A stretch of DNA of 44,037 nucleotides from a virus, in the IMG/VR virus record IMGVR_UViG_3300037258_000330, positions 1 through 44,037 of that record; one strand, 5' to 3'. Below, piece by piece: positions 11,349 to 44,037 of the stretch; position 1 is the stretch's first letter, and each line of letters starts with the position of its first letter. Below the pieces are notes generated by a model that was not told the origin of the DNA, ran no database searches, and was given only the letters and a program-made list of their open reading frames with translations. The position numbers were made by a program, and so were the translations under genes.

Positions 11349-11349
11349 G

Positions 11350-11757
11350 TCAGCAATCCCCCACCAACAAATAAAGATACGGGCCGCGCCACTTGGCCCA
11401 GGCGAACTTGGTCGCGTCCAGGGCCGTGGTGTACGGGTTGTAGCAGGTCGCGGTGTCGGCACCCGAGGCGGTGAAACCCGGGCCGTCGGCGTCCTCGATC
11501 AGGAGCGTCACGGTCGCCGAGCCGGGCGAGCCGTACGTGCCGGCGGCGATCCCGCCCGAGCCGGTCAGGATCGGCACCAGCTCATCGGTCGCCAGGCTGT
11601 ACAGGAGCGGCGGCGAGACCGAGCTCTCGGCGCTGTCGATCGCCAGCGGCGGCGATGCGACCATGCGCCGCCACCGCTCGAGCTCGCGGTAGATGATGTT
11701 GAGCATCCAGGGCGCGAGCGAGTCGCCGTCTTTGACGTTCGGGAAAATGTTCGGCAT
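11350..11757 (-). CDS. Tail-tip associated hypothetical protein (135 aa)
   Basis: Tightly packed between the neighbouring tail genes, with good codon bias. Confidence 0.7.
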   Translation of the reverse strand: MPNIFPNVKDGDSLAPWMLNIIYRELERWRRMVASPPLAIDSAESSVSPPLLYSLATDELVPILTGSGGIAAGTYGSPGSATVTLLIEDADGPGFTASGADTATCYNPYTTALDATKFAWAKWRGPYLYLLVGDC

Positions 11758-22400: not shown

Positions 22401-24751
22401 TTGTCGGCGAACGTGAAGAGCTGCCAGTGGGCCGAGGCGTCGCTCGTCGCCGTCCAGGTCCCGGTCAGGGTGCAGGCGGCGTCGGCATCGTCGACGATGA
22501 ACACATACTGGGGCGTGCCGAAGAACGACCAGAAGAAATTCGTGACCCCGTAGTTGGTCGGAAACACCGCGCTGTTGACGGCGACCGGGATCGGGTCGCC
22601 GCCGTTGATCGTCACGGTCGCGCCCGTGGTGTTGACGGCCGTCACCGGGACCGCTTCGCCGGCCGTGAACCCGTCCGGCGGCGTGCTCGTCGTCTCGGTG
22701 AACCCGACCAGGAGGTTGCCGCCGGGGTAGATGCCGACCGACGCGAGCTGCGCCGTGACCGCGACGACGGTGTAGGGCAAGCCGACCGGGAGCAAGCTCG
22801 ACCCGTTCGTGACCGTGATCGTCTCCCCCTGCGGGGGCGTGATACTGCCGGGCACGCTGAGCGTGCTCGTCGCCGTGGCATCGCCCGATGACGTCAGCGT
22901 GAGCGTCGAGGGGGTCCACGTGCCGCTGGTCGTGTCGGTGGGCGTGAACGTGACCGACGAGCCGAAGGGCGCGCTGTTGAGCCAGGAGAGCGTGAGCGTG
23001 ATGTTGCCGGGGCTATGCGCGTTGCCACTCCCACTGAGGACGCCGACGGCGGCGAACGGCGGATTCAACGGCGGGCCGGCCGCAACCACTGCGCCCGCCG
23101 TCGGCACGGCCGAGAGGACGGTCTTGATGCCGATCTCGGGGTTGGCGCCCAGCATGTTCAATACGTCGAGCTGGACATACTGGTCGGTGGCCTCGCCCGT
23201 GCTCTGCCTGCCGGCCTCGATCACCTCGGCGGGGAAGTACTTGCCGAGGTTGTCACTATCGCTGCCGGAGTAGCCGGTCGTCAGGACCTGGCCGCCGTTG
23301 GGCACGCCGTCGGGCCAGAGTGGCTGCAATGACCAGAGCGCGAAGTTGGCGTAGGCCGCGCCGGCCATGCCGACCAGGGTTGCGCTCGGCTGCGCGCCGA
23401 TCGTCAAGTCGGCCGTCGTCGACGCCGTCAGCGCCGGTACCGAGCCGGTGTAGACCTCGGTCAGTCCCGATCCCTTCGTGAGGGTGGTGTAGATCGAGTT
23501 CGTGGGGTCGGCGAAGTAGAGGTTGAGCAGGCCGCCGCCCGAGCCCATGCCGTTGCCCGAACCCCAGTCCCAACTGAGGAACAGCCAGTTGCTGCCGGAG
23601 CCGTAGGCCGAGAGCGTATCGGCCGTCGTCTGCCATTCCTGGTGCTGCGAGCCGGCCGCGTTGACGTAGAAATCGAGGTAGTTGGCGGAGCCGCTCGTGT
23701 CGTAACTGAGCTTGAACACATCGTTCGTCGTCGTCCCGTCGACCTGGCTCACGAGCGGCATCGACGTGACGCCGCCCGGGAACGTGGTCGAGCCGGACGC
23801 AAGCTTGACGGCGATATGTCCGCTGAACTGAGAGAGCCCGCAGAGGACCTGGTCGGCCCCCATATTCAGACAGTCGGTACCGGCCGTCATCGACCGGGCG
23901 AGCGTGCTGGTACCCAGGAAGATCGGCGCGTCGGCCGTGTGGGTCGGAAGGTCGGTCGACGCGAACGTGATCACGTCCGAAGTGCCCGAGCCGGGCGCGG
24001 TGTAAGTGGTCGAGGCGCCCGAGCTGGTGGACAGGCTGCCGTTGACGACCGAAATCACGATCGTCTCGTTGGGCAATCCCGCGAAGGTGAAGGCCCGGGT
24101 ACCGCCGAGGGCGACCGCCGCGGCCGGCGGCGTGATTGCGGCCGAGGGGCCGCCGATCGCGCCGGCCCAGAGGGTCCGGCAGATGTCGCTGCCCATGCCG
24201 GCGTTGTCGATGAACACGCCGGCACTGCCGGTCGCCGTGATCCGGTCCGAGTCGCTATCGGCGTAGGTCAGGACGAGCGCGCCGTTGTAATAGATGTCGA
24301 GCGTGACGGTCGCGCCGGTGCCGGCGGCCGTGATCGAGCACACATCGCCGGCCGCGACCGTGGGGATCGTGGTGTTGTCGACAAGCAGGGTGGCCGACCC
24401 CGCGATCGTGCGGAAGAGACGAACGACCGAGGTGCCGGGCGTCATGCAGGCGAGATAGCAATTGACTGCGCCGTCGGAGCCGCTCGCACGGACGGTGGGC
24501 CCGCAGATGCCGGTGACCGAGCCGACCATCGCCGATCCGCAGACCCAGCTCGACTGATACGCCGAGCCGGGCGGCGTCCAGCTCGAATACATATAATAGG
24601 TCGTGTTATCCGTAGGCGACGTGATCGCGCCGCTGCCGCTGAGTGTGATCTCCGTGGCGCCGGACGGACCCCAGGTGACGCCGCCGCCGCTGTCGGGGGT
24701 GTGGTCGACAAGGTTGCCGGTGCCGTTGAAGAGGTCGAAAAAGTCGGCCAT
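19466..24751 (-). CDS. Giant virion-associated protein (1761 aa): N-terminal lectin/ConA-like fibre domain, multiple beta domains, C-terminal (beta/alpha)8 glycosidase-like region with two 33-aa tandem repeats
   Basis: The frame is uninterrupted with protein-like composition (Thr/Gly/Ser/Ala-rich). [12 protein letters not shown] and LVCYEGGAE resemble clan GH-A acid/base and nucleophile strands. The repeats are [18 protein letters not shown]. Confidence 0.85.
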
Positions 24752-25344: not shown

Positions 25345-26760
25345 TCAGGAGTGCGTGGCCGAAGTGCCGACGAAGCCGGAGACCTGGTTGCTTTGCGTCC
25401 CGTCCGCGAGGTAGTAAGGCGCGATCTGGCCGGGCTTGCCGTCGTTGCGGATCTTCGCGCGAATCGCGATCTGGTCGGTGTCGAACAGGAAGTGCTCGGA
25501 CAGGCCGATCTCCAAACCCGACCGGCGGCCGACCCAGTACTTCTTACGGTCGATTAGCATCAGGTCGCAGGCGTCGCCCAGGACCGGCGCTTTTTCCGAC
25601 GCGTAGAGCTGCCAGCCGAGGAACACTCCGGACGGCCGGTAGGCCAGGCCGCCGGCGGCGACGGCGCCGACGCCGGGCGTGGCGACGATCGTCGAATAGG
25701 GGATGAAGATGAACCGCCCCGAGGGATCCTGCATCGTCTCGAGCTGGTACAGCGTGTAGGGGTGACAGACCCAGCACGGCGACATCGGGTTCTGTGCGAA
25801 CCGCGTCTTCATCGTGAAGACGTCCTGGTACAGGATCTCGTCGTTGGTGTTTCGGTCCACCAGGAGCATCGCCGGCGAGTTGGTCACACCCAAGAATTGC
25901 CCCGCGCCATTGCCCTGAAACGACTCCCAATCCTCGCGCCAGCCGATGGCGCCGCCAATCATCCGGATCGCGTACGCGTCCATGCCCGACGCATCGTAGA
26001 TCAGGTCGCGGGACAGCTCGGTCAGGGCCGTCAGGTCCTGCGCCAGCATCTGGATTTTCTTGAGCGCGAAATCGGTCTCGGTGCGCTGGACCTTTTCGCC
26101 CTTCCGGTAGACCTGCACGCCGCCGTACCAGGCGCTCTGCCCCAGGACCGGAGCCGTGAACTGGTTCAACGCCGTGTACTCGACCTGGCGCGCGGCGAGC
26201 GGCTTGACGTCGGCCGCCGGCACGATGATCTCTTCCTCGGCCGCGACCTCGAAGAACATCGACTCATAAACGACCGGCGTGGCGTAGCCACCGGTCGAGC
26301 CGGCGCCTTCCGCCATGTTCCGGCTCGAGCCGTACCCGCCCTCTTCCCAGGGCCGGCAAAGCTCCTCGTGGGCATTGCGGCACTCGTCGGCATCGCGCGA
26401 GCCGAGGGCCTCGATCACGGTCCGCACGAAATGCCCGGGGCCGGCCCGGCGGCGGTCGATCTCCTGCGACCCGGAATCGATCCGGCCGTTGAACTCGATC
26501 CCGCCGTTCGAGGCGACGAGCTGGCGGGGACGAGCGAGCGGGCCCTGGCTCGCGCCGAGCTGGCTCCGGGTCCGGTCGGCCTGGGCCTGGATCAGGGGTT
26601 GCAACTGCGCCACGGCCATTGCGGCCGCGCGCTGCGCGGGATCTTCGGGGGCCGCCTCGGCGACGCCGAGGGCGACGTAATTCTGGGCGATGGCGTCCGC
26701 GACGTCGGCGAACGAGCCACTCTTGGCCGTGCCGATATCACGGATGAACTTGATCCACAT
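25345..26760 (-). CDS. Major capsid protein, HK97 fold, with N-terminal delta/scaffold-like region
   Basis: STGGYATPVVYE followed by a typical HK97-family body. The ATG at 26760 is preferred over the GTG at 26835 because the first 25 codons have poor codon bias. Confidence 0.85.
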   Translation of the reverse strand: MWIKFIRDIGTAKSGSFADVADAIAQNYVALGVAEAAPEDPAQRAAAMAVAQLQPLIQAQADRTRSQLGASQGPLARPRQLVASNGGIEFNGRIDSGSQEIDRRRAGPGHFVRTVIEALGSRDADECRNAHEELCRPWEEGGYGSSRNMAEGAGSTGGYATPVVYESMFFEVAAEEEIIVPAADVKPLAARQVEYTALNQFTAPVLGQSAWYGGVQVYRKGEKVQRTETDFALKKIQMLAQDLTALTELSRDLIYDASGMDAYAIRMIGGAIGWREDWESFQGNGAGQFLGVTNSPAMLLVDRNTNDEILYQDVFTMKTRFAQNPMSPCWVCHPYTLYQLETMQDPSGRFIFIPYSTIVATPGVGAVAAGGLAYRPSGVFLGWQLYASEKAPVLGDACDLMLIDRKKYWVGRRSGLEIGLSEHFLFDTDQIAIRAKIRNDGKPGQIAPYYLADGTQSNQVSGFVGTSATHS

Positions 26761-26899
26761 GGGTAGAAACCTTGGGGGTTCGTAGTTGTCGAACAGGCCC
26801 AGGGCGTAGACTTGCGGACGGACGGGGGGCGTCACGTTCGGCGGCGGTGGTCGTCGTCGTGCTCGCCTGGTGCGTCGCTATCTCTCGTCAGGGTCGGAC

Positions 26900-27826
26900 T
26901 CAGACTCGACCTCGAGCGAGGTCGTGAGTGTCTCGGAGGGTCTGCTCGGTCAAGAGGCAGAGATGGGCGGCGAGCGACCGGCACGTGATCGCCACCAGGT
27001 CCTCGACGGTGTAAGTGCGGACGCCGTCCGGTAGCGGCGGGATCACGGGCACGGGCGCGGCCCGCTCCGGCGCCGGCTCGGGGTGCTCGAGGGCGGCCTC
27101 GGCCTCGGCCTGGCTCTCGTGCCGGCTCACGACCTGGCCGTCGCACTCGACGCACCAGCCGCCGTCACGCTCGACGACCGAGCGGCCGTCTTTCGTCTTG
27201 GTCGCATAGCCGCCGGTTTCGCCCGATCCCTCGGCCATGTCGCGCGTCGCTGCGGGGAGCTCGGCCCGCGCGGCGTCGGGGATCCAGAGCCCGCGCTCGA
27301 CGGCCACGGCCAGCGCTTCGGGGTTGCCCGGGTACGCCACGGCCGAGTAGCCGGCCAGCTCCCACCGCCGGAAGATGCACTCCGCGCCGGCCCAGTCCGG
27401 CCGGCTCCGGAGCTCGTCGGCCGTTGGCCGGCCGGACTGGGCCGGCTCCGGGATGAAGTCGACCGAGAAGGAAGTGAGCGTCCCATCAACGTAGTTTTGA
27501 AAGATCCGGTCGGAGTACTCGTCCGACTTGAACTGCGTCACGGCCAGGATGTCGTCCTCGGCCCGGCGATACTTGATGCTCGAGCAGTGACCGACCGGCT
27601 GCGACCCGCGCGTCGGGTCCTGGCCGTGTTGCCAGAGCACCGCGGGGTTTTTCACGAACGACCGGAAGTCGGCCCCCCCCGGCACGACGACGGTCCGGTA
27701 CCGGTCGACGACGGCCGTGTTGATTTTCGCGACGACCGACCGGCGGGGCTTCGACACGTCGTCGATCACGGCGCGAAAAGCGCGCGACTGCGGACCGCTC
27801 GGTGGGGGAGTGGCGGCTTCGGCCAT
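26900..27826 (-). CDS. HK97-family prohead protease (S78/U35-like) with C-terminal extension
   Basis: VLWQHG...PVGH and LTSFSVDF match the family His/Ser regions. It sits directly upstream of the capsid gene. Confidence 0.8.
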   Translation of the reverse strand: MAEAATPPPSGPQSRAFRAVIDDVSKPRRSVVAKINTAVVDRYRTVVVPGGADFRSFVKNPAVLWQHGQDPTRGSQPVGHCSSIKYRRAEDDILAVTQFKSDEYSDRIFQNYVDGTLTSFSVDFIPEPAQSGRPTADELRSRPDWAGAECIFRRWELAGYSAVAYPGNPEALAVAVERGLWIPDAARAELPAATRDMAEGSGETGGYATKTKDGRSVVERDGGWCVECDGQVVSRHESQAEAEAALEHPEPAPERAAPVPVIPPLPDGVRTYTVEDLVAITCRSLAAHLCLLTEQTLRDTHDLARGRV

Positions 27827-28050: not shown

Positions 28051-28247
28051 GGTGTGTCTTTCAGGCCGCCGGCCGCCGGCTCGAAATGAATGCCGTGATC
28101 GCCGGCATACGGCTGCTTGTGATCGTGCTTGTTGAACAGGATGGCATCGGGGATACCCTTGCCGTCCGGATAGGCGTTGCAGGTCATCGGGCCCGGGCCG
28201 TCGGGCCGGTAGTGCCGGCACGAAAGGCACTGGGGAAATATCGTCAT
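28047..28247 (-). CDS. Small Cys/His protein (66 aa; CLSC...C)
   Basis: ATGA overlaps at both ends. Contains CLSCRHYRPDGPGPMTCNAYPDGKGIPDAI. Confidence 0.6.
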   Translation of the reverse strand: MTIFPQCLSCRHYRPDGPGPMTCNAYPDGKGIPDAILFNKHDHKQPYAGDHGIHFEPAAGGLKDTP

Positions 28248-29806
28248 GGCAATGGTCCGCCGTAGGCGAGGTAGAGGCGAGTCACTTCGGCATTATAGGA
28301 CTTGCCCGCAGCCAGGCCGGCATACATCTCAGCCACGAACTCGGCCGGCTCTTGCGCGGCATAGCGACTCACGTGCTGCGCGACGAACGCTTTCTCGGCC
28401 GCCGAGAACGTGCCGGTCCCGACCAACTTGTACTGCGCGTCGCCAAGATTCGCGTGGTGTTTGGCGTGGCCAACCTCGTGCACGATGATGTGATTGGGTT
28501 CGCTCGTTGAGAACCACGGCGGCTGCTTGCGATTCGCGGCGAGCATCCACCCAGCCGGGTCGCGCCAGTAGTCATGCGTCTCGTTGATCAGGATCCTCTC
28601 GCCGGCCGCCTCATAGGCCGCCGGCACACGCGCCGCATGGACCGCCCCTACCTGGCTCGTAATGAACGCGGCCCCGTGGCGATCAACCTTGACCTGCCGC
28701 GCCCGCGCATAATCGACGGCCTCATCGATCGGCGTCTTGGGCGGAGGGCCAGGCGCTGGCGGCGGAACTGGCGCCGGCGCTGGCGCCGGCGGTGGCGGGG
28801 TCGGCATCACCGGCGCTTTCGGCGGCGGCTTGGTCGGCCGCGGCTTCGGCCGGTCCGGCTCCGGCTTGGGGACCGGTTTGCCGGCCGGCGGCGTGTACTT
28901 GTCGCCCAGGCCCTTTTGCGGCTGGTCGAGAGTCTTCCCCCACTCCGGATCGACCGGGCCGCCGTACTCCGGCTTCAACACCTCGATCATCGTGCACTGG
29001 CAGTGCGGGTGCAGCGGCGGGTACTTCACGTTGCGGTAGTGCGGGTTGTTGCCGATCGTCGCGAACGACTGGCCGAGCTGGACCCGCTTGCACTCGGTCG
29101 CGATCTTGCGGCAGAGCGGACACGCGTCCGACGACAGCAAGAGCTCGAGCCCGGCGACAACCTCACTCTCATGGTCGGCCAGGTCCTGCGCGGCGTGCAC
29201 GGCTCGGCTGGCTTCGGTCGCGGCGATCATCCGGGCGTGGCTGTTCGACAGCCGCTCGAAGACGTATTGGACTCGCGCCGCCAACTCACGAATGGACTCT
29301 CCCTCCTCGACCATCCCGATCACGAGCTCCTGCCGGAGCTGAGTCAGGGCCTGCGCGAGCGTCTTGTTGGTCGAGCCGTTCGTTGTCTGCGAGAACGCCA
29401 GCGCTTGCTGCCGGATCGCGGCCGCGAGATGGGGATTGACCACCCGCCACTCGTCCGCGTCGAGGCCGAGCCGGGCGTAGACCTGCTTGCCCGACTTGTC
29501 CCAGTAGCTGGCCAAAAGCGGCGTCATCGCCTTGGCCATCGGGTCGACCCAGTCGTCGGCCGTCAGGTCCGGGAACGCCCCCGGCAGGCCCGTGTTGGGG
29601 ATGGCGTCGAGCACCGCCCGCTCTTGCTTCGCGAGCCAGTCGCGGAGCTCGTCGGCGATCGGCTCGCCGTCCGGCAGGCCGTACGTGTTGTCCTCGGCGT
29701 GGTGGCCGCCGTCATCGCCGTCGTGGGCCCGGGCCCGGAGCTGCCGGAGCCGGAGCCAGCCGATAAACATCGCGACCTCGACCAGGTCGTCGTCGAGATC
29801 CGTCAT
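28244..29806 (-). CDS. Head morphogenesis protein (SPP1 gp7 / Mu F family) fused through a Pro-rich linker to an HExxH metallopeptidase-like domain
   Basis: ARMIAATEASRAVHAAQ, DACPLCRKIA and PPLHPHCQCTM are MuF signatures. A linker of about 55 aa is mostly Pro. The C-terminal domain has IIVHEVGHAKHH and a downstream EFVAE. The ATG at 29806 forms an ATGA overlap. Confidence 0.85.
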   Translation of the reverse strand: MTDLDDDLVEVAMFIGWLRLRQLRARAHDGDDGGHHAEDNTYGLPDGEPIADELRDWLAKQERAVLDAIPNTGLPGAFPDLTADDWVDPMAKAMTPLLASYWDKSGKQVYARLGLDADEWRVVNPHLAAAIRQQALAFSQTTNGSTNKTLAQALTQLRQELVIGMVEEGESIRELAARVQYVFERLSNSHARMIAATEASRAVHAAQDLADHESEVVAGLELLLSSDACPLCRKIATECKRVQLGQSFATIGNNPHYRNVKYPPLHPHCQCTMIEVLKPEYGGPVDPEWGKTLDQPQKGLGDKYTPPAGKPVPKPEPDRPKPRPTKPPPKAPVMPTPPPPAPAPAPVPPPAPGPPPKTPIDEAVDYARARQVKVDRHGAAFITSQVGAVHAARVPAAYEAAGERILINETHDYWRDPAGWMLAANRKQPPWFSTSEPNHIIVHEVGHAKHHANLGDAQYKLVGTGTFSAAEKAFVAQHVSRYAAQEPAEFVAEMYAGLAAGKSYNAEVTRLYLAYGGPLP

Positions 29807-30084
29807 GAGCCTTTGCCCGCGCGGAGTCGATCGAGCTCGAGCTGGAGCCGGAGCTCGGCAATCTGGCGGTCGAGCTGGGCGACGACGAGCTGGTGGTTGG
29901 CCGCGGCGACGTCGATCACGTGGTTCGCCAGGATCGGCGCCGGCCGGAACAGGATCTCCGGCCCGGCCGGCCCGTACGGGAGCTGGCCCTCGATCCACTT
30001 GCCGCGCTCGATCTCAACGGCCTCTTGCTGCGGGCTCTCGGGGTTGCCGGCCGAGACGACCTGCGCCGGTACCGGAGTGATCAC
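29803..30084 (-). CDS. Hypothetical head-module protein (93 aa, C-terminal coiled coil)
   Basis: The GTG at 30084 forms a GTGA overlap with the SEC-C ORF stop. Confidence 0.55.
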   Translation of the reverse strand: MITPVPAQVVSAGNPESPQQEAVEIERGKWIEGQLPYGPAGPEILFRPAPILANHVIDVAAANHQLVVAQLDRQIAELRLQLELDRLRAGKGS

Positions 30085-30266
30085 GCGGCGGTGTCCGGCA
30101 CGGGTGCGATCGGGGTCCGCAGGAGCAAGCAACACCGTTTGAACTTCCGCCCCGACTTGCACGGACAGGGCGCGTTCCGGAGGATCGCATGCCGGTATTT
30201 GCGGCCGGTCGCCCGGTCGAACAGCACCAGGCGCGGGTCATTGCTCAGGAACATCAGCGGCTTCAC
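30081..30266 (-). CDS. SEC-C motif zinc-binding miniprotein (61 aa)
   Basis: PCPCKSGRKFKRCC is a SecA C-terminal type metal-binding motif. The GTG forms a GTGA overlap with the portal stop. Confidence 0.65.
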   Translation of the reverse strand: MKPLMFLSNDPRLVLFDRATGRKYRHAILRNAPCPCKSGRKFKRCCLLLRTPIAPVPDTAA

Positions 30267-31753
30267 GCGGCACTCTCCATTTCAATCTGCTCGAGCACTC
30301 GGCCGAACCGGTCCCACAATCGTTTCTTCTCCGGATCGCCGGCCGCGGGCCGAGGCTGCGCCGCGGCCTTTTCGGCCACACCCTGCGCATGCTCTCTCGC
30401 CTCGGCCGCGGCCGTCGGTTGCATCTGCGTCGAGGGGAACCACGGCTCGTCACCCCACTCGACCGGATCAAGCCCGTCGTCGGCCCGCGTCTCGTTGATA
30501 TAGCGCGTGCCGTTCTTGATCTGCATGTCGACGATCTTCGCGTGCCGCTCTTCATCGCGCGTCACCGCATCATCGAATGCGAAGAACAGCCGGTCGTCGA
30601 CCGGCCGCGCCGCCTGGTGCGTGAGCGCGTTGGCGATGATGCAACACCGCGGCGCGATCGCGTAATACTGGTGCTGATGCGTCCCCTCGCTCGCGACCGC
30701 CCGGTTCGTGTCCTCGGCCTGCAGGAGCGAGATCGGCACGTCAAAGCAGTTCGCAACGAGCAGCCGCTCCCACTTCGAAATCTCGAGGCCCGACAGGTCC
30801 GCCGGCGGGTACGCGATCGGCTGGACGTCGACCGAGCCGTCGGTCGTCCAGACCCGGCCCTGCCGGCCGCGGCCGAACTTCTGGTTGATGTCGACCTCAA
30901 ACCGCTTCCGCGACGTCTCGTCCCAGGGGTGTTGCAGGCCGTCCTTGGGCGAGATCATGAGCGACATCTGCGCGTCGTTCTTCAGGAACGACTCGACGAC
31001 CGACAGGTAGTAATCACCGAGCCCGACCGACTCGAAGCACGCGTGCAAGGGCGCGTAGGCCGAGAGGTACGGGTCACGAAGCGACACGTACCGGATCCGG
31101 ACCAGGTCCGTCGCCGAGAACTGGTCGCCGAAGTACTTGTACCCGCGGAGGACCTCGGTTCCGGTGCCTTTGATCGCGTAAACATACTGCGATTGGAGAC
31201 CCCAGACCTTCATTCCCTCGCGGGCCTGGCTCGGATCGTTCGATCCGTCGGCCCGGACCGGCCGCTCGGGATAGAGGTAGGCCGCGCCGACGACGTCCAA
31301 CTGGCGGGCGATCAGATTGAGTAACAGGTTGCCGTCGAAGTAGTCGTTGGGCGCGTCCGTGATCGCCGTCAGAAGCGGGTGCTCCGTGATCTCGTCGACC
31401 TGGTCGCCGTCGGCGATCGACCGCGTGAGATATGGGAGCGACCGCAGGTACCGCTGCCGGCCGGTGGAGACCGCCCGACACGACCGGCGGGGGCGCGCCT
31501 GCTTGGGGCTGGTCTTGGCGTACAACCGCAATGGCACACGCGCCACACCGTTCGCATTCAATTGGATGCATGAGTAAGCGACGTTTTTGTAGGCATTGGT
31601 CAACTCATACGGCGTCGGCGGCCGCTTCGAACGCGCGATGTCGAGCCACACCGGCCCGCCGGCGCCGTAGCCGACGGCACCCGAGGCGATGCCGGCCGGC
31701 GCCGATCGCTCGAGCGAATCGAGGTAGGCCGCGACTTCAGAGTGGGTTCGCAC
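30263..31753 (-). CDS. Portal protein (HK97-family type)
   Basis: 496 aa, positioned between terminase and MuF. Typical portal composition with an acidic C-terminal tail. Confidence 0.85.
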   Translation of the reverse strand: MRTHSEVAAYLDSLERSAPAGIASGAVGYGAGGPVWLDIARSKRPPTPYELTNAYKNVAYSCIQLNANGVARVPLRLYAKTSPKQARPRRSCRAVSTGRQRYLRSLPYLTRSIADGDQVDEITEHPLLTAITDAPNDYFDGNLLLNLIARQLDVVGAAYLYPERPVRADGSNDPSQAREGMKVWGLQSQYVYAIKGTGTEVLRGYKYFGDQFSATDLVRIRYVSLRDPYLSAYAPLHACFESVGLGDYYLSVVESFLKNDAQMSLMISPKDGLQHPWDETSRKRFEVDINQKFGRGRQGRVWTTDGSVDVQPIAYPPADLSGLEISKWERLLVANCFDVPISLLQAEDTNRAVASEGTHQHQYYAIAPRCCIIANALTHQAARPVDDRLFFAFDDAVTRDEERHAKIVDMQIKNGTRYINETRADDGLDPVEWGDEPWFPSTQMQPTAAAEAREHAQGVAEKAAAQPRPAAGDPEKKRLWDRFGRVLEQIEMESAA

Positions 31754-32164: not shown

Positions 32165-32493
32165 TCGACGACCCGCATTTTCGAACGACGGACCGTGGTG
32201 AATCGACGCACCGAGCCGGCATGCGGACCGTAGTCATAGACCTCGGCAGCAAGCAGATCACCTCGGTCGCCGAGCAGTCCGTTGAGGATGCCCAGCGAAC
32301 AGAGGTAATACCCCACGTACCCGTGACGTTCGTCGTCGCTGACAACTTCCCGGACCGGGATCGTCGGATGGTCGGCCAGCGCCTGGTTGCAGGGCACGAC
32401 GTTCCGTATCAACGCTGTGACCGCCAGCGGGTCGAGCGCGAGCGCCGAGTTCAGGAGCTCGGCCATCTTCCTCGCCGACAGTGAACGTCTCAT
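32161..32493 (-). CDS. Hypothetical protein (110 aa)
   Basis: ATGA overlap with the TerL stop. Confidence 0.6.
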   Translation of the reverse strand: MRRSLSARKMAELLNSALALDPLAVTALIRNVVPCNQALADHPTIPVREVVSDDERHGYVGYYLCSLGILNGLLGDRGDLLAAEVYDYGPHAGSVRRFTTVRRSKMRVVE

Positions 32494-34034
32494 TGCTCGT
32501 CACTCCACCAGTGCGGGTCGTCCGCGTCGGCCTGCCGTTCGAGCGCCCGTTGCCGCTTGGCAACCAGCTCCGCCTCGGCCTCGGCCTTCTCGCGCGCCGC
32601 CCGGAGCTCGTCCGGCTCGGTCGCGGCGCCGCTCCAAAACACGTTCTCGGCCGCCATCGACGTGACGTCGACGACGTCGTCGTGCGCGCCGTCCGGGAAT
32701 GCCTGAAGCTCCGCCTCATAGTCGGCGAGCCAGGGCGCCCGCTCGGGGAAAAACACCTGGCCGGCTTCGACCCGGACGATCGCGGTCTGCGCCCAGCTCA
32801 GCTTGTCCGGATGCTTGGTACAGCCCCTGACCGCCAATCCGGCCCGGCGCATCGTCTGCACCACGCCGAGCTGCATCCCGTTGGCCTCGACCAGGAGATA
32901 CGCGACCGCGTGCCGTCGGCACGTGTCCGCCGCCGCCTTGATGACGTCGGGCGACTCGAGCCGGTCCCGGACGAGGTCGACCAGGATCAGGTCGCTCTCG
33001 AGCGACACGGCCCAGATCGCGATCACGGTGTAGTCGGCCGACGTTTTGATCGAGGTCGCCAGATCGACGGTCCCGAACGACCGGCAGTCGCGGGCCCGTA
33101 CGACACGGACGGTCGCACCGAGCGGGTCGAGCAGCCGGTAGATCCGGTCGCCGTCGTTCCCTTCCGCGCGCCAGTACCGGAACCAGCTCCTCTTGAACGC
33201 GTTCCCCTCGGCCGGCCGCGGCGACCCTTGAAAGAGCGCGTAGAAACTGTTCCGCAGGACCTTCTCGCGCCGCCGCAAGACCTCGATCGGATACCGGTCC
33301 GGGCAGAGCGCTTCGCCCGGCTCGCGGCCGAGCGGGTCATTCTCTTCGGCGATCGCCGGCAGGTTGACGTAGGTCCAATCCGGCCCTTCCTCGGTCCCCT
33401 TGATCCGGCCCTGCAGGTCGTCTTCGTGCCACCTGGTCATCGTGCCGACGATCGCGGCCCCGGGCTCGGCCCGGGTCACGAGGTCGTCGACGTACGAGTC
33501 GTGGACGCGGTTGCGATAGGTTTCGCTGTTCGCCTCGAGCCGCGACTTCACCGGGTCATCGATCAAGATCAGGTTGGCGCCCATTCCGGTGATCCCGACG
33601 CCGATCCCGGCCGCCCGGACTCCGCCGCCGGCGGCCGTCTCCCACTCGCCGGCGGAGTTACGGTCCGTCGAGAGTGGGAGACGTTCGCCGACGATCCGGC
33701 GGATCTTCCGGCTGAATTTCTCGGCCAAGGCCTGCGAGTAGGCCCACACGATGACCCGCAGCGTCGGGTCACACTCGATCCGCCATGCCGCATACCGGAC
33801 CGTATTATGCTCGGTCTTGCCGTGCCGCGGCGGGCACGACATCCATAGCCGGTCGATCTCACCCGACGTGATCCGGCCGAGCTGGCCCCGCATGTACTCG
33901 AGGTGCGGCCAGTCCCAGGTCCAGCTCGGCGACACTTCGCCGAGCCACTCGTCGAACGGCTTCAGACGCGCCCGCCGCCGAAGCTCGAGCTCAGCCGCCG
34001 CTTGAGCCTGCAACGATGGCGCGGAGCTGGTCAT
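32490..34034 (-). CDS. terL: Terminase large subunit
   Basis: Walker A-like CPPRHGKTE and Walker B-like NLILIDDP, with a C-terminal nuclease-type region. 514 aa. Confidence 0.9.
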   Translation of the reverse strand: MTSSAPSLQAQAAAELELRRRARLKPFDEWLGEVSPSWTWDWPHLEYMRGQLGRITSGEIDRLWMSCPPRHGKTEHNTVRYAAWRIECDPTLRVIVWAYSQALAEKFSRKIRRIVGERLPLSTDRNSAGEWETAAGGGVRAAGIGVGITGMGANLILIDDPVKSRLEANSETYRNRVHDSYVDDLVTRAEPGAAIVGTMTRWHEDDLQGRIKGTEEGPDWTYVNLPAIAEENDPLGREPGEALCPDRYPIEVLRRREKVLRNSFYALFQGSPRPAEGNAFKRSWFRYWRAEGNDGDRIYRLLDPLGATVRVVRARDCRSFGTVDLATSIKTSADYTVIAIWAVSLESDLILVDLVRDRLESPDVIKAAADTCRRHAVAYLLVEANGMQLGVVQTMRRAGLAVRGCTKHPDKLSWAQTAIVRVEAGQVFFPERAPWLADYEAELQAFPDGAHDDVVDVTSMAAENVFWSGAATEPDELRAAREKAEAEAELVAKRQRALERQADADDPHWWSDEQ

Positions 34035-34509: not shown

Positions 34510-34782
34510 TCAATTGAGCTTCTCCGATCCAGGCGGCCTGCGCGGCAGACACTCGAGGATCCCCACCTTGAGCCGGTGCTCGTCGGCGGCGAACCGCCGC
34601 GACTGCGCACCGTCCAGAAAGCTGCGCAGCGCCCCGACGAGCGCGGCGAGCGAAAGCACGAGCGACGGTACCAGCTCCCACGAGGGCCCGTGCCGTAAGA
34701 GCGCGCCGACGAAGTCGCTTACCGCGGCCAAGTTAATGACCGCGAACAACGAAGTCGTCATGTCGTGCCGGTGAGAGATCAT
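34510..34782 (-). CDS. Two-TM small membrane protein (holin-like candidate)
   Basis: Hydrophobic segments are LFAVINLAAVSDFVGALL and LVPSLVLSLAALVGAL. It lies between the metzincin and the terminase genes. Confidence 0.55.
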   Translation of the reverse strand: MISHRHDMTTSLFAVINLAAVSDFVGALLRHGPSWELVPSLVLSLAALVGALRSFLDGAQSRRFAADEHRLKVGILECLPRRPPGSEKLN

Positions 34783-34821
34783 CAGGGTGGGATGGGGGCG
34801 GGTCGGGCCTTGCTTCGTTAC

Positions 34822-35007
34822 TTACGGGTTCGGCGGCGTCACGGCCGCGGCCGTCGAGTGCACCGCGCCGCCGATGCCGAACACGGCCAGGGCCTGCAAG
34901 ATCGACTGGCTCGCGGCCGTCAGGTCTTGCTGGTTCACGGCCTGGTAGACGGCCAGGCCGACGAGACCGACGGCCGGCAGATACGTGAGCACTTGAGCGA
35001 TCGTCAT
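34822..35007 (-). CDS. Small two-TM membrane protein (holin-like candidate, 61 aa)
   Basis: GAGGA is 5 nt upstream. Hydrophobic segments are LPAVGLVGLAVY and ALAVFGIGGAV. Confidence 0.6.
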   Translation of the reverse strand: MTIAQVLTYLPAVGLVGLAVYQAVNQQDLTAASQSILQALAVFGIGGAVHSTAAAVTPPNP

Positions 35008-35111
35008 CGGGAGTCCTCGAGCATGCTTCGGAGCCGCGGCTTACTCGGGAGCTCGTGGGCCGGCAGTGCGACGGCAGTGGCCGGTGACCCGAGGCGCGGC
35101 GTCCGAAATCG

Positions 35112-35825
35112 TCACGGGGTGGTTATCAGTTTGGGAGCGGCCTCGAGCTCGACCGTGATCCGGTACGCGCCCGCCGCAGGAATCCGGAGCGGGACGGCGA
35201 CCGGAGCCGCCGCGCCGACTGCGATGCCGAGCACCGTGTCGCCGGCCTCGGTGAAGATCGCGTCGATCGCGAGCGACCGGTCGACTGTGAGCGTCGGCAC
35301 GGCCGCCGGCTCGACCGGAGCGGGCGCGGGCGCCGCGAGGGGGTACCGCTCGAGGGCTTGGGCGACGTCGTCGGGCTGGGGGCCGGCGAGCTGAGGCTGA
35401 TAGATCGGATTCATGATGGCCGGCGTGGCCGTCGTATGCACGAAACCGAGCGCGTGCCCGAACTCGTGCATGGCGACCTGGGCGAGCTCCTCGACCGTCC
35501 AGGCGACGTCGATGTTGAGCTGCATCGTCACTTGATCCACGCCGGTCGGAAGCTGAGTCAACCCGAGCTCGACGCCGCTGGGATCCAGTGTCGCGAACTC
35601 AATGAGCACGTGCGCGGCTTCGCCCGTGCCCGATGCCGTCTGCACGCCGCACACTTGCGGCCAGACGTCGGCCGCGGCGACGATCGCCGAGAGCGCGTCC
35701 GACCACGAGAGTCCGGCAGGGAGCGGATCGGTCCGGAGCCAGTACGTGACGAGCGTTCCGGGTGCCCAGCGATAGATCGCGGTGTCTCTCAGCTCGGGGC
35801 GGCCGCAATGACAATTCGCCTTCAC
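35112..35825 (-). CDS. Matrixin-type metzincin zinc protease (M10-like) with C-terminal beta domain
   Basis: HEFGHALGFVH (HExxHxxGxxH) plus the Met-turn AIMNPIY. The GTG start forms a GTGA overlap. Confidence 0.85.
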   Translation of the reverse strand: MKANCHCGRPELRDTAIYRWAPGTLVTYWLRTDPLPAGLSWSDALSAIVAAADVWPQVCGVQTASGTGEAAHVLIEFATLDPSGVELGLTQLPTGVDQVTMQLNIDVAWTVEELAQVAMHEFGHALGFVHTTATPAIMNPIYQPQLAGPQPDDVAQALERYPLAAPAPAPVEPAAVPTLTVDRSLAIDAIFTEAGDTVLGIAVGAAAPVAVPLRIPAAGAYRITVELEAAPKLITTP

Positions 35826-36079
35826 GCGGACGGTCTCCGATAGCCCAGAGAGATCAGTAGTCGTAGATAATCACATGCCGTCGGAAACCGCACGCCGGTC
35901 CGGTCCTGCCAGGCCCGGAGCGTGAACAGGAATTCCTGCTCTTCGGGCGTGTAGGACCGGTCCGTGTCCGCGGGGTGTGCGAGCACTCCCCAGGCGCGGC
36001 GGCGAGACCGAGCCGACGCGGCGCTACCCGCTGCTCGGCTCTTGTGCCCGATCTCGGCGAGTGAATTCGACATTGCCAT
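35822..36079 (-). CDS. Hypothetical protein (85 aa)
   Basis: The stop overlaps the metzincin start. The conserved-looking C-terminus is YTPEEQEFLFTLRAWQDRTGVRFPTACDYLRLLISLGY. Confidence 0.55.
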   Translation of the reverse strand: MAMSNSLAEIGHKSRAAGSAASARSRRRAWGVLAHPADTDRSYTPEEQEFLFTLRAWQDRTGVRFPTACDYLRLLISLGYRRPSA

Positions 36080-36359
36080 AAAGGTCGTCTGCGCGCGGGG
36101 GGGACTCTTCCGCCGGCGTCGACCGGTCGAACGATTCCGCCCGCAACGACTTGGGAGAATCTGCGGGTAGGGCGCTTTCGTACCGATCGATCACGCTCCG
36201 GACCTCGGCCGGGTGGATCCGGAACGCGGCGGCGAGCAACCGGATCGAGCACCCGAACTGGTAGCTCGAGTAAATCACCAGGTCCCGGTTCGCGAGCCGG
36301 CGCCGGAGTGCCGACGCCGACCGACCGGCCAGGGCGCGCGTGATCCGCGGCTTGTCCAC
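36024..36359 (-). CDS. HTH protein resembling sigma-70 region 4 / LuxR-type DNA binding
   Basis: Contains NRDLVIYSSYQFGCSIRLLAAAFRIHPAEVRSVIDRY. The GTG at 36359 is just after the upstream stop. Confidence 0.5.
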   Translation of the reverse strand: MDKPRITRALAGRSASALRRRLANRDLVIYSSYQFGCSIRLLAAAFRIHPAEVRSVIDRYESALPADSPKSLRAESFDRSTPAEESPPRADDLYGNVEFTRRDRAQEPSSG

Positions 36360-36363
36360 CGTG

Positions 36364-37077
36364 TCACCCGGCCTTTCGTCGTTGCGGCCGGACCGACTTC
36401 GACCCGAACCGGCGCCGGAAATACCCATCCATCCCCCACCGGTCGCACCGCAGACAGTACTCGACCGGCGCGAGCTTGCGCCCCCGGCAAGCAGGGCAGT
36501 GGTCGAGCACCGGCCGGGCCCGGAGCCCGAACCCGCACGCCGAGCACGCCAGGCGGGCGTGCCGCCGCTTGCGGGCCGAGCAGACCCGACACCGGGTCGC
36601 AGGCCTGCGACGCCGGCCGGCTTCGTCCCAAGGCCACGCGCAGTGTCCCCAGAGGATCACCCGCGGCCGAGGCGCGGTCTCGATCGTGAGCCGCGGCCGG
36701 CTCGGCCGGTCGGCCGGCTCGGCCGTGCGGTGGTCCGGGATCTGCTCGACCAGGGCGTGGTGATCGTGCATGCGCCGTCGCTGCGCCGCACTGATCGTGC
36801 GCGACCGGACCGAGACCGCCTCGGTCGACCAGCGGTAGACCTCGGCCCCGCGCGTCTCCACGAGCCGCGCGCCGAGCTGGGCGGCGCCCAAGGGCGAGAG
36901 CGTGACGACGGGCCCGTCGGGTCGGGCCCATCGCGCGAGCAGTCCCGCCGCGACCAGGACCTCGACGGCCGCCGCGACCGCTGGCCCGTCGCTCCCCAGC
37001 GCGCGGGCCAGCTCCGCCTCGCTCAGCCACGCGCAAGGCCCGTCAATGAGCGCGCCCGCGACGTCGGCGAACTCCAT
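36364..37077 (-). CDS. Winged-helix (MarR-like) N-terminal domain plus Cys-rich zinc-ribbon C-terminal domain; putative late regulator
   Basis: The ATG at 37077 has GGAG 8 nt upstream (the track start 37086 is a GTG). The wHTH region is LSEAELARALGSDGPAVAAAVEVLVAAGLLARW. Several CxxC pairs are present (CRVCS, CSAC, CPAC, CLRC). Confidence 0.7.
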   Translation of the reverse strand: MEFADVAGALIDGPCAWLSEAELARALGSDGPAVAAAVEVLVAAGLLARWARPDGPVVTLSPLGAAQLGARLVETRGAEVYRWSTEAVSVRSRTISAAQRRRMHDHHALVEQIPDHRTAEPADRPSRPRLTIETAPRPRVILWGHCAWPWDEAGRRRRPATRCRVCSARKRRHARLACSACGFGLRARPVLDHCPACRGRKLAPVEYCLRCDRWGMDGYFRRRFGSKSVRPQRRKAG

Positions 37078-37135
37078 GGGAGTCACTCCGGGTGCGATTC
37101 GTGGTGTCGATCAAAGGAGAGTGCGAGCGCGGCTC

Positions 37136-37559: not shown

Positions 37560-38117
37560 TCAGCGTCGGAGAAAATGAAACGACGACTTACTTGGTGCCT
37601 GCGGGGTCGCGAGCACGGCCTGCGCCGGCGGGGAGAGCGCCGTCGCGGGTGGTGCCTGGACGAGCTGCACGACGACCGGCGTCGCGGTAGCGGACGACGC
37701 CGGCAGAACGAGCCGATCGCGCTTGAGCTCGGCGAGCCGTTCGCCGAAGTTTCCAAGCGCTATCCGGACCGGGCCCGGATGCCGGATCTCGGCCAGGATG
37801 GTCGAGGGTGCCGATGGCGCAGTGACCGCGGCGGCCGGCGCCGCGACCACATGCAGCGTGACGGTCTGCGCCTGGGGCGCCGGTGCCGCGGCCGGCGGTA
37901 CCACCAGGTGGATGACGGCCGCCGGGGGGTCGGCCGGTTTCGGGGGGGCCGGAGCCGGCGCCGTGTCGGCCTGGGCCGGGAGCTGCGAGCTCGGGAGCGG
38001 CGCGCCCGCCGTGAGTCGCGGCGGCTCGACGACGTGGCCGTCGTCGGCCCAGAGGAACGCGGCCGAGCCCAGCACGAACAGAGCGACCCCGCCGATCCGA
38101 ATAATCCAAGCTTTCAC
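37560..38117 (-). CDS. Signal-anchored Pro/Ala-rich protein (185 aa)
   Basis: The GTG at 38117 is followed by KAWIIRIGGVALFVLGSAAFLWA. The N-terminal part of track ORF 37560..38456 is Arg/Gly-rich junk. Confidence 0.5.
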   Translation of the reverse strand: MKAWIIRIGGVALFVLGSAAFLWADDGHVVEPPRLTAGAPLPSSQLPAQADTAPAPAPPKPADPPAAVIHLVVPPAAAPAPQAQTVTLHVVAAPAAAVTAPSAPSTILAEIRHPGPVRIALGNFGERLAELKRDRLVLPASSATATPVVVQLVQAPPATALSPPAQAVLATPQAPSKSSFHFLRR

Positions 38118-38354
38118 ACCCACTCGGGGCCCCCTTTCGCGCGCGATCGATCTGGCGTAAACGCCAAACCTTACCACATCTTTTATCGGCCGGTCGGGCC
38201 GCCCTCCCCTACCCTTTTCCCGACCGGCCAGGGGACCGCGGCCGGTCCGCGAACCGGCGCCGCCGGCAACCGTCGGACCGGATCCGGCCCCCCGTCCGAT
38301 TGGGCAAAAAGGGCAGGGGGGATCTGTGCTCCGGCGGGGGGCGGAAAAGATTTT

Positions 38355-42075: not shown

Positions 42076-42165
42076 TCCGTCCAACCCAGGCCGAAACCCG
42101 CAGGGATGCGGGTCTCGCGGTGAGTGCCGCGACTGACGAGGCCCGTACACACGAGGGACCAATCA

Positions 42166-42456
42166 ATGGGCAAGAAAACGGAAACCAACGGCGACGGTCG
42201 GCCCGTGATCGTTTGCACCGAGCACCGGGGCGTGTTTTTCGGCTACGCAGGCGACACGAGCGGCGACGTGATCGCGCTCAAGCGGGCCCGGATGGCGATC
42301 TACTTCGGCACCACCCGGGGCGTGATGCAGTTGGCCGAGACCGGGCCGACGGCGAACTCCAAGATCTCCGCGCGTGCCGACCTGGAAGTCCGCAAGATCA
42401 CCGCCGTGATGGAGGTGGCGGCGCCCGCCGTCGAGGCGTGGGAGAAAGCCTCATGA
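42166..42456 (+). CDS. Conserved-phage-family-like small protein (96 aa)
   Basis: GAGGGA is upstream. The pattern VIVCTEHRGVFFGY...VIALKRARMAIYFG...GVMQLAETGP...SKIS resembles a widespread phage protein family (V-V-R-x-AGV-F-G ... ARR-WYW ... LA-x-G). The family name is not verifiable here. Confidence 0.65.
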   Translation: MGKKTETNGDGRPVIVCTEHRGVFFGYAGDTSGDVIALKRARMAIYFGTTRGVMQLAETGPTANSKISARADLEVRKITAVMEVAAPAVEAWEKAS

Positions 42457-43365: not shown

Positions 43366-44037
43366 ATGGCGTCTTCCCGAGCGATCCACCGGCTCGAGGT
43401 CCTGGTCGATCTCCAGCTCGACGGCCGTCTGTCCGCGACCGCGCGCCTGATCCTCGGCTCACTCCCCCCGCTGGCCGGCGGGGGGGTGGTGAGCCCGACC
43501 GACCGCGAGCTGGCCGAGCTGCACGGCTGCTCCGAGCGAACCGTCCGGTCGGCACTCGCCGCCGGCGTCCGCGCCGGCTGGATCCGCCGGCTCACCCGGG
43601 CCGAGGCTATGGCCGAGCGCCTGGTTCCCCGGGAAGCGGCAAAAGGCCGCCGGTACCTGGTGCTCCTGTGGGTGGTCGAGGCCCGCGAGCCGGCAACTTT
43701 CTGCCGGCAACTTCCTGCCGCTTCCCCGTTGGCTACCGGCAGGAAGTTGCCGGCTCCCACCGAGTTGCCGGCAGAAAGTTGCCGCCCCCTCGCGTGTGCG
43801 CCCGTTTCGAACCCCTCTTTACGAACGAAGAGAGAAGAACGTACGAGCGATTTCTCTCCCCCCGTGGGAATGCCGCCCTTGACCGGGTGCAGTCCCGCGA
43901 CCAAGCGCCTGTTTGCCGCCCAGTTTGAGCGGACGCGCGCCGAGGAGTCTCAGCCGGGCTACACGCCCCCGCCGCCGCCCTGGTGGGAGACCCGTCGCCC
44001 CCCGACGCCGGCGCCGACGCGCCGGATGAAGGTCGAG
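43366..44037 (+). CDS. 5' part of the junction-spanning replication-initiator-like gene (wHTH N-terminal domain; continues at position 128 after collapsing the overlap)
   Basis: The ATG at 43366 opens a frame with no stop to the window end (hand-translated). Contains ARLILGSL...VSPTDRELAELHGCSERTVRSALAAGVRAGWIRR. It is absent from the ORF track because it runs off the end. Confidence 0.7.
   Translation, partial: MASSRAIHRLEVLVDLQLDGRLSATARLILGSLPPLAGGGVVSPTDRELAELHGCSERTVRSALAAGVRAGWIRRLTRAEAMAERLVPREAAKGRRYLVLLWVVEAREPATFCRQLPAASPLATGRKLPAPTELPAESCRPLACAPVSNPSLRTKREERTSDFSPPVGMPPLTGCSPATKRLFAAQFERTRAEESQPGYTPPPPPWWETRRPPTPAPTRRMKVE
43690..43784. repeat. Iteron cluster: CCGGCAACTT(T/C)CTGCCG twice direct and twice inverted, plus one extra half-site
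   Basis: Direct copies are at 43690-43707 and 43704-43720. Inverted copies are at 43737-43753 and 43768-43784. The half-site AGTTGCCGG is at 43763-43771. Copy 1 is the reverse complement of copy 4, and copy 2 of copy 3. Confidence 0.9.

Follow-up and report, generated by a model that had tools for sequence, protein, structure and literature searches.

Introduction

The canonical holin-endolysin(-spanin) cassette of phages is exemplified by lambda S-R-Rz/Rz1, which lies upstream of the terminase. Here, we describe a lysis-type cassette in a viral DNA of 44,037 nucleotides (IMG/VR virus record IMGVR_UViG_3300037258_000330, positions 1 to 44,037; the whole stretch is hereafter called the window), in which a collagenase-type metalloprotease, a matrixin of peptidase family M10 encoded at 35112..35825, occupies the place expected for the endolysin. 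An earlier note on this DNA, made from the sequence without database searches, had suggested that the protease carries the endolysin role. What is new here is a conserved phage module with such a protease at this place, in genomes without a recognisable muralytic enzyme. As in lambda-type cassettes, the genes follow a late regulator and precede the terminase, and a leaderless soluble enzyme is encoded beside small membrane proteins with charged C-termini. In contrast to these cassettes, the enzyme belongs to a protein-endopeptidase family and is optional among relatives, no holin family is matched and no spanin is recognisable. Peptidase-type endolysins (M15 L-Ala-D-Glu peptidases, M23, CHAP/NlpC-P60) are likewise zinc- or cysteine-dependent peptidases in phage lysis cassettes, but they have different folds and demonstrated murein specificity, and the searches of this genome detected none of them.

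A Listeria prophage encodes a metzincin, Mtz, in association with lysis genes; it sensitises the envelope and enhances phage lysis as an accessory, non-essential factor (Boichis et al, 2021; PMC8235301). This enzyme carries a Sec signal peptide, is encoded downstream of a canonical holin-lysin pair, and works together with the TIMP-like lipoprotein Tim in a Gram-positive host (PMC8235301). The protease of the window differs in being leaderless, in lacking both a canonical lysin and an upstream holin-lysin pair, and in being followed by helical membrane proteins without a lipobox; a specific relationship to Mtz in sequence was not found, in that a fold search of BFVD with this protease listed no Listeria phage protein, Mtz itself never having been directly compared. 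In mycobacteriophages, LysB is a serine esterase that acts on mycolyl-arabinogalactan, always accompanies the canonical endolysin LysA, and is absent from some phages (PMC6116114, PMC13578437). The likeness to LysB lies in the proposed logic only, that of an accessory second lysis enzyme for a host-peculiar layer other than peptidoglycan, as the two proteins are unrelated in sequence and fold.

With matrixins in general (MEROPS M10A/PF00413; human matrix metalloproteinases MMP-1, MMP-3 and MMP-11), the phage protease shares the HExxHxxGxxH motif, the Met-turn, the catalytic fold and a Cys motif directly upstream of the catalytic domain. It differs from them in having no signal peptide, no PG_binding_1-like pro-domain of about 80 residues and no S-loop ligands for the structural zinc, in having a private C-terminal beta-domain instead of hemopexin, and in being encoded by a phage, at the head of a late operon. 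Other matrixins work outside the cytoplasm, and the cysteine switch is a device of extracytoplasmic zymogens. Karilysin of Tannerella forsythia is a bacterial matrixin with a short propeptide. The best viral structural matches of the phage protease are the matrix metalloproteinases (MMPs) of insect viruses (granulovirus, ascovirus, entomopoxvirus), which are thought to degrade structural barriers of the host late in infection. Unlike the phage protein, these are secreted enzymes of eukaryotic viruses with signal peptides and larger architectures, and they are unrelated to holin-type export.

A minimal matrixin encoded by a phage

The protease gene and its parts have the following positions in the window:

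35112..35825, minus strand: leaderless matrixin (M10) protease of 237 amino acids (aa), GTG start
35793..35813, minus strand: residues 5-11, cysteine-switch-like motif CHCGRPE, with no signal peptide or pro-domain before it
35436..35468, minus strand: residues 120-130, catalytic zinc motif HEFGHALGFVH, which fits HExxHxxGxxH
35400..35420, minus strand: residues 136-142, Met-turn AIMNPIY, with M138 invariant and aligned with ALMYP of MMPs
35142..35294, minus strand: residues 178-228, C-terminal five-strand beta-domain (AlphaFold secondary structure, strands at 178-226)

The open reading frames (ORFs) of the protease and of the two small proteins encoded after it (61 and 90 aa) are present, with a coding-type GC content at third codon positions (GC3) of 0.85-0.92. 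The earlier note had read the protease as a metzincin from the motifs HEFGHALGFVH and AIMNPIY and had placed a beta-rich domain at its C-terminus, in good agreement with our results. The product matched Pfam Peptidase_M10 (PF00413) with E=6.4e-12 (46.1 bits against a cut-off of 24), and a phmmer search of PDB sequences returned MMP-11 (E=1.5e-7). The AlphaFold model (predicted local distance difference test, pLDDT, of 73) was matched by Foldseek to the catalytic domains of MMP-3, MMP-9, MMP-10 and MMP-13 (E~1e-8, target-normalised TM-score ~0.7), and a family profile of 62 sequences matched pro-MMP-1 (1su3) with E=1e-37. Residues H120, E121, H124, G127 and H130 are invariant in the close clade, and the zinc motif is nearly invariant in 150 family representatives. 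Searches of Pfam and NCBIfam gave matches to metzincin families only, and neither to a muralytic class nor to an ImmA/IrrE-type family; an anti-repressor of the ImmA/IrrE type was rejected on these grounds. By family hidden Markov model (HMM), predicted fold and motifs the protein is thus a true matrixin, with endopeptidase activity predicted from the family.

The ORF begins four residues ahead of the motif Cys, and an upstream extension is impossible. In profile alignments the column of CHCGRPE falls on KQPRCGVPDV of pro-MMP-1 (1su3) and RKPRCGVPDV of pro-MMP-3 (1slm). The Cys is shared by all sequences of the 62-sequence alignment, for which distant members had partly been picked for carrying the motif; among the top 40 unselected representatives the Cys is present in most, typically 11-18 residues ahead of a conserved Trp. 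On this alignment CHCGRPE is homologous to the cysteine switch of MMPs, with putative zinc ligation. The S-loop has an 8-residue deletion where MMPs read ...RGDHRDNSP..., and, in the alignment, no His stands at the LAH/DAH ligand positions; judged from these positions, the structural-zinc/calcium site of the S-loop is lost. With the catalytic core and the cysteine-switch peptide kept, the leader, pro-domain and structural metal site lost and a private beta-domain gained, the protein can be described as a minimal matrixin.

A word-indexed search found only five relatives of the protease. At E<1e-3 the exhaustive profile search returned 5,661 proteins, of which 836 reached E<1e-10 and 32 reached E<1e-30. 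Members of the closest ~40 clusters have 200-280 aa, begin 3-20 residues ahead of the Cys in a [RK]-C-x-[HR]-P-[DE]-like motif and have no hydrophobic leader, and in more distant members a canonical PRCGVPD is preceded by an extension of 60-115 residues. PG_binding_1, which is the fold of the MMP pro-domain, was present in 28 of 150 family representatives and PG_binding_3 in one; the carrier of the latter was not recognised among ten family proteins that were re-scanned. The family has no PHROG, and tblastn gave no match in 50,697 deposited phage genomes. Its viral structural neighbours in BFVD were the insect-virus MMPs and a few uncharacterised phage proteins.

The protease is part of a conserved module upstream of the terminase

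The genes around the protease are, in the direction of transcription:

36364..37086, minus strand: 240-aa putative late regulator heading the module, weak MarR_2 match, N-terminal part winged-helix-like, C-terminal part Cys-rich
36024..36428, minus strand: 134-aa helix-turn-helix (HTH)-like ORF, weak HTH_28 match, overlapping the region of the next gene, exact start uncertain
35822..36079, minus strand: 85-aa basic protein (up85), conserved C-terminal motif ...EFL..[7-8 aa]..FPT..DYL...LGY
34822..35007, minus strand: 61-aa small hydrophobic protein, two Gly/Ala-rich hydrophobic stretches (hydropathy), no Lys or Arg
34510..34782, minus strand: 90-aa holin-like protein, two hydrophobic stretches, loop motif RHGPSWELVP, charged C-terminal helix
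33991..34452, minus strand: TerS, small terminase subunit and downstream boundary of the module (phrog_4102, E=5.7e-29)
32490..34034, minus strand: TerL, large terminase subunit (phrog_38, E=1.1e-95; Pfam Terminase_6N and Terminase_6C)

Nine protease-bearing contexts were compared (the window, L001/L002, L003, L006, L069, L070, L071, L072 and L076). In all nine the order is the same: a regulator or a sigma-70-like gene, often up85, the M10 protease, zero to four small ORFs of which some are hydrophobic, a homologue of the 90-aa protein, TerS, TerL and portal. The protease has the same direction as the late structural operon and stands at its head. The contexts include at least three portal types and differ in their terminase-family matches in Pfam, and what distant phages have in common with the window is mainly this module (in L003, several early genes and two tail genes as well).

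The two small proteins between protease and terminase had been described in the earlier note as holin-like, with two hydrophobic stretches each and in a classic location for lysis genes. Both stretches and the adjacent TerS and TerL genes were found again here, and the location recurs as a lysis-cassette-like module in the nine contexts, with a protease that has no secretion signal and that in three lineages has a C-terminal hydrophobic extension. The 90-aa protein is predicted by AlphaFold to form a helical hairpin (helices 5-31 and 38-78, pLDDT 77), of which the second helix runs into the charged tail (7 K/R, 4 D/E). In size, transmembrane segments and charged C-terminus it resembles holins. 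It has 30 database homologues, is encoded in 13 of 13 related contexts, and lies downstream of the protease in all nine that have one; scans of IMG/VR and JGI metagenomes with its profile returned only the contig already known. The 61-aa protein, which has homologues at the same position in L001, L003, L067 and L077, resembles holins only in part, with weaker hydrophobic segments and no charged tail. Neither protein matched a described holin family in Pfam or PHROGs, and a profile search of PDB with the 90-aa protein gave nothing significant. Position and neighbours are thus, as far as sequence can tell, lysis-cassette-like and conserved, with neighbours that are candidate rather than demonstrable holins.

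Several relatives connect the protease physically with the small proteins. The C-terminal extensions of the proteases P0015 (E=3e-11) and P0050 (E=2e-7) are homologues of an 81-aa ORF in the L006 cassette, and on this homology P0015 is a demonstrated fusion of the protease to a cassette protein. The proteases P0018 and P0024 have hydrophobic C-terminal tails. At three loci (L070, L071 and L072) such an extension stands in the place of the small ORFs, and the 90-aa gene follows directly after the protease. One fusion, two hydrophobic extensions and the invariant adjacency together link the protease to small membrane-associated proteins.

Upstream, the stop codon of up85 overlaps the start of the protease (GTGA), and up85 homologues lie directly upstream of the protease in seven of the nine contexts; no match to up85 was found in Pfam, PADLOC or PDB. 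The 134-aa ORF is conserved in L001, L066, L067 and L077 (tblastn). Homologues of the 240-aa regulator are found upstream of the cassette in L001, L066, L067, L069, L070, L076 and L077. In L003 (9467-9997) and L006 (1964-2641) a sigma-70/ECF-like (extracytoplasmic function) gene takes its place upstream of the protease, which suggests interchangeable late-transcription regulators for one module.

One further gene upstream of the module regulator (37560..38117, minus strand) encodes a membrane-anchored protein, in which a long spacer rich in Pro and Ala is combined with the conserved C-terminal motif EIRHPGP.R.A.G..GERL. It is common to L003, L067, L070 and L071 and has a TonB-like or i-spanin-like architecture.

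Relatives without the catalytic domain

By searching outward from the 90-aa protein, we found four related contexts in which the catalytic domain is missing:

L067: 68-74% nucleotide identity to the window across regulator, transmembrane-protein genes and TerS; catalytic domain and up85 gone
L067, 5594-5779: stand-alone beta-domain ORF of 61 aa (blastp against protease residues 178-227: 51% identity, E=1e-8)
L077: clean short-read contig with regulator, orf134-like gene, 57-aa and 85-aa genes and TerS; protease slot empty
L066: fragmentarily called relative of L067, possibly frameshifted, with an up85 remnant
L068: six small ORFs, most with transmembrane segments, upstream of TerS; no enzyme within 6 kb

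In this lineage the protease is therefore optional or dispensable, which weighs most against naming it the endolysin. Up85 and the protease thus appear as an add-on to a conserved unit of membrane-protein and terminase genes. The stand-alone beta-domain in L067 implies that this domain has a function of its own in the cassette.

A complete genome without a detectable canonical lysin

The contig has 44,037 bp and a GC content of ~68%. An exact direct repeat of 127 bp is found at both ends (1..127 = 43911..44037); identical ends are the usual mark of circular closure, and the window thus represents a complete genome of ~43.9 kb. About 55 ORFs were called, including gap ORFs and one ORF across the circular junction. 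All of them were compared with Pfam, the junction ORF without its N-terminal ~220 aa, and PHROGs were also searched; NCBIfam was run on ten proteins including the largest. The complete genome gave no match to muramidase, amidase, CHAP/NlpC-P60, transglycosylase, M15 or M23 families at the sensitivity of single sequences against HMMs, at which a cryptic lysin may go unseen. The earlier statement that no peptidoglycan hydrolase is recognisable anywhere thus holds at the HMM level. The genome also gave no holin or spanin PHROG. In the full 38.6-kb relative (L003-L005), no lysin was present among the stored Pfam matches.

The earlier note had named a giant protein and the tape measure as places where a canonical hydrolase domain might be hidden. 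Pfam, PHROG, NCBIfam and PDB sequence searches of the 1761-aa protein, the tape measure and the tail proteins, with PDB sequences applied to the 1761-aa protein, were negative, and a lysin hidden in them was rejected. A weak match to phrog_1922, annotated as tail lysozyme, covers profile positions 848-901 of 932, lies in an ~80-aa domain shared with other phages and overlaps stronger matches to structural proteins; we do not take it as evidence for a lysozyme. The 1761-aa protein itself (19466..24751, minus strand) is rich in Thr, Gly, Ala and Ser, and its gene is separated from the major capsid gene upstream by one small gene. Pfam, NCBIfam and PDB sequences gave no match to it, self-BLAST showed no internal repeats, and only the ~80-aa domain (residues ~1433-1514) is common to the virion structural proteins of other phages.

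A planctomycete host is probable

A single gene of the window resembles a host gene:

7832..8938, plus strand: pseudopilin-like gene, 368 aa, prepilin-type N-methylation motif, GspG-like N-terminus

With the early genes on one side and the tail-fibre end of the late operon on the other, it occupies a moron-like position; it has hundreds of homologues. All homologues with an organism name belong to Isosphaeraceae or other planctomycetes (Aquisphaera insulae, Tautonia marina, Paludisphaera sp., metagenome-assembled genomes of Isosphaeraceae, Planctomycetales bacterium 71-10); their identity is 40-45% over the whole protein, and some lie on contigs of chromosome size. Homologues are also found on several phage-sized contigs (28-45 kb). 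The related contigs all have a GC content of 65-72%. On the basis of this one gene and of GC content, the host is likely a planctomycete, with Isosphaeraceae indicated. Prophages in reference genomes gave only distant cellular M10 genes, and the host could thus not be read from prophages.

The earlier note had linked its reading to hosts with unusual, protein-rich envelopes, and a planctomycete would agree with this: planctomycete envelope fractions are dominated by protein (sources include the 2025 centenary review of the phylum). The planctomycete wall was described as proteinaceous for 30 years, and its peptidoglycan has been known since 2015; lysozyme-sensitive sacculi containing diaminopimelic acid (DAP) are documented in members of other planctomycete families. 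The centenary review mentions phages once, and in the literature that we searched no characterised lysis system was found for a phage of Planctomycetota.

Proposed role of the protease and alternative explanations

Family, fold, motifs, lack of a leader, synteny, gene fusion, optional presence and the lack of detectable lysins are results of the comparisons above. On these we infer an export route, latency, activation and a substrate class, beside the host already named, and propose the following course of events. The protease would be transcribed at the head of the late operon, with its start translationally coupled to up85, and, being made without a signal peptide, would build up in the cytoplasm. 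In this reducing compartment it may be kept latent by the minimal N-terminal cysteine switch, with the Cys thiol on the catalytic zinc. The 61-aa and 90-aa holin-like proteins would then permeabilise the inner membrane and give the enzyme access to the envelope, where the switch could open, plausibly by thiol oxidation or N-terminal clipping. The endopeptidase would finally degrade envelope proteins that may be wall-associated, Pro-rich or outer-membrane-tethering. Matrixins prefer Pro-containing extended protein substrates, and this preference fits a Pro-/Cys-rich protein layer better than murein peptides. That a latent protease is released through holin-like proteins late in infection and degrades envelope proteins as a lysis-associated or accessory enzyme is the reading that we favour from the sequence comparisons, tentatively and with slightly less than even confidence. 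In favour of it stand the identity of the enzyme, its conserved context and link to small membrane proteins, the separate head protease, and the Listeria precedent; in its way of acting, such an enzyme would come closest to Mtz and to LysB. The protease would be the enzyme part of a mobile lysis-type module in temperate phages of a probable planctomycete host, and is probably neither the sole lysin nor one that cuts peptidoglycan.

Several observations weigh against this proposal. In the relatives L066, L067, L068 and L077 the catalytic M10 domain is missing beside membrane-protein genes that still precede the terminase, so that the life cycle does not require it. In several contexts the module adjoins lysogeny genes (integrase, recombinase, HTH), a neighbourhood that is equally typical of morons and regulatory genes. 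The pro-domain that positions the switch in MMPs is missing from the phage protease, and the transmembrane tail of P0018 would by default, in a protein without a leader, keep the catalytic domain in the cytoplasm. The putative role of the small membrane proteins is read from their size, topology and position only, as they have no match among known holin families. For the host assignment there is one gene, with 40-45% identity.

The endolysin role that the earlier note had given to the protease would, in its full form, make a holin-released matrixin the only breacher of murein, by cleavage of stem peptides or cross-links or of a load-bearing protein wall. Such a role would be in keeping with the enzyme slot that the protease holds in the nine contexts, with the lack of any other detected lysin in the complete genome and among the stored Pfam matches of the 38.6-kb relative, and with the PG_binding_1 and PG_binding_3 domains in part of the wider family. 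However, PG_binding_1 is the ancestral pro-domain fold of MMPs and has been lost in the phage clade, and the four relatives without the catalytic domain keep both the membrane proteins and the terminase. Planctomycete sacculi consist of lysozyme-sensitive peptidoglycan, and we know of no metzincin that cleaves the D-amino-acid or iso-peptide bonds of murein. We therefore regard the protease as sole endolysin as improbable, and nothing indicates cleavage of peptidoglycan cross-links by this family of protein endopeptidases. Of the earlier interpretation, the conserved cassette, the lack of a recognisable lysin and the type of host are thus supported, and the endolysin role and the cutting of cross-links are not. 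Given the lysozyme-sensitive DAP-type sacculi and the specificity of matrixins for proteins, the peptidoglycan-breaching activity is still unaccounted for. A further proposal holds that the decisive envelope breacher of planctomycete phages is a holin-released, redox-unlocked matrixin that dismantles a mechanically important protein layer or the protein tethers of the wall, and we consider this unlikely. The switch would then be closed in the reducing cytoplasm and open in the periplasm, and the protease-less relatives would depend on a different, unrecognised enzyme. If protease-based lysis were true, it would be the first protein-targeting 'endolysin' class in bacteria and a direct probe of planctomycete envelope cohesion.

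A role outside lysis would be in keeping with the presence or absence of up85 and the protease as a unit between syntenic relatives (the window and L001 against L067 and L077), and with the distance of only one to three genes between this pair and HTH repressors, integrases or recombinases. The pair would then be an optional moron or regulatory module, next to membrane proteins that serve another purpose. The protease might be a cytoplasmic redox-gated enzyme acting on a phage or host regulator or another host target (in induction, takeover or exclusion), or an exoprotease of lysogenic conversion; the coupling to a small basic protein, potentially a DNA-binding partner or inhibitor, and the cytoplasm as default location of a leaderless protein would agree with the former. 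We consider a role outside lysis rather less likely than its absence, since the 90-aa membrane protein follows the protease in nine of nine contexts, cassette or hydrophobic segments are fused to it in three lineages, and the gene is co-directional with the late structural operon at its head. Moreover, the cysteine switch is typical of extracytoplasmic zymogens, and no similarity to regulator proteases of the ImmA/IrrE type or to defence systems was found; a defence or abortive-infection module was rejected on the lack of a PADLOC match. A processing enzyme that cleaves the cassette membrane proteins or a virion protein, for instance an antiholin-like partner that times lysis, as Mtz cleaves Tim, would account for the strict co-occurrence with the 90-aa protein and for the fusion to cassette proteins. 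It would also follow the Listeria precedent, in which the relevant substrate of the metzincin is the product of a neighbouring gene. Against this, the same membrane proteins are retained, conserved in sequence, by relatives that have no protease, so that these proteins function without processing, and a dedicated prohead protease exists; we judge a processing role very unlikely. A function in prohead or virion maturation was rejected in view of the separate HK97-type head protease at 26900..27826, an S49 protease in L071, and the relatives without an M10 domain.

We regard the locus as a cassette of lysis type that combines a new class of enzyme with a putative new family of holins, in phages and hosts whose interplay is nearly unexplored. 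If the favoured proposal of a lysis-associated protease is correct, it would add a new catalytic class to phage lysis cassettes, a minimal and possibly redox-gated latency mechanism for a matrixin, and an enzymatic tool for learning which planctomycete envelope proteins matter mechanically. The arrangement may then reveal how viruses exit planctomycetes. Should the gene be only an accessory or moron gene, the protease family would still be an undescribed one.

Additional features of the genome

The remaining recognisable genes include a tail-completion protein and the following:

~43366 to 496, across the circular junction: replication-initiator-like ORF, 346 aa (phrog_270, E=1e-4)
746..1756: integrase
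3549..4424: D12 methyltransferase
12598..14217: tape measure
25345..26835: major capsid
26900..27826: HK97-type head protease (phrog_80, E=2.7e-10)
28244..29998: MuF-like protein
30263..31753: portal

Megablast and tblastn found no close relatives among deposited phages, with TerL at most 36% identical. Scans for promoters and terminators of the E. coli type and the usage of Shine-Dalgarno sequences gave nothing informative.

Between the late operon on the minus strand and the early HTH gene on the plus strand, a conserved non-coding element is located at ~38130..38330 (minus strand), with counterparts in L001 (5760-6020), L003 (8310-8570), L066 (3060-3320) and L067 (3140-3420); in L001 and L003 it contains in-frame stops. 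The invariant blocks CCCCCTGCCCTTTTT and GAAAAGGGTAGGGGG are complementary over 15 bp with two G-U pairs and flank a variable GC-rich insert, and they are followed by the invariant GCCGATA.AAGATGTG.TAGGGTTTGGCG. The element had no Rfam match. The stem is invariant in sequence, so that covariation provides evidence neither way.

A tRNA-Arg(CCG) was predicted by ARAGORN at 4682..4757 (minus strand) inside the plus-strand ORF 4421..7111, which encodes 896 aa, shows strong GC3 and has no family match. Rfam at its gathering threshold gave no tRNA at this position; either the ORF begins downstream of the tRNA-Arg, or the tRNA call is spurious. A 393-aa ORF at 10281..11462 (minus strand) is Cys-, Thr- and Gly-rich and tail-fibre-like and has no family match. 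It overlaps with both neighbours when these are taken at their maximal extents; for the last late gene, 10278 is a more probable start than 10443. Among the early genes, the one at 42124..42456 (plus strand) encodes a DUF6948 protein (Pfam E=2e-21) that is 80% identical to its counterpart in L001 and is the best-conserved early gene between both phages.

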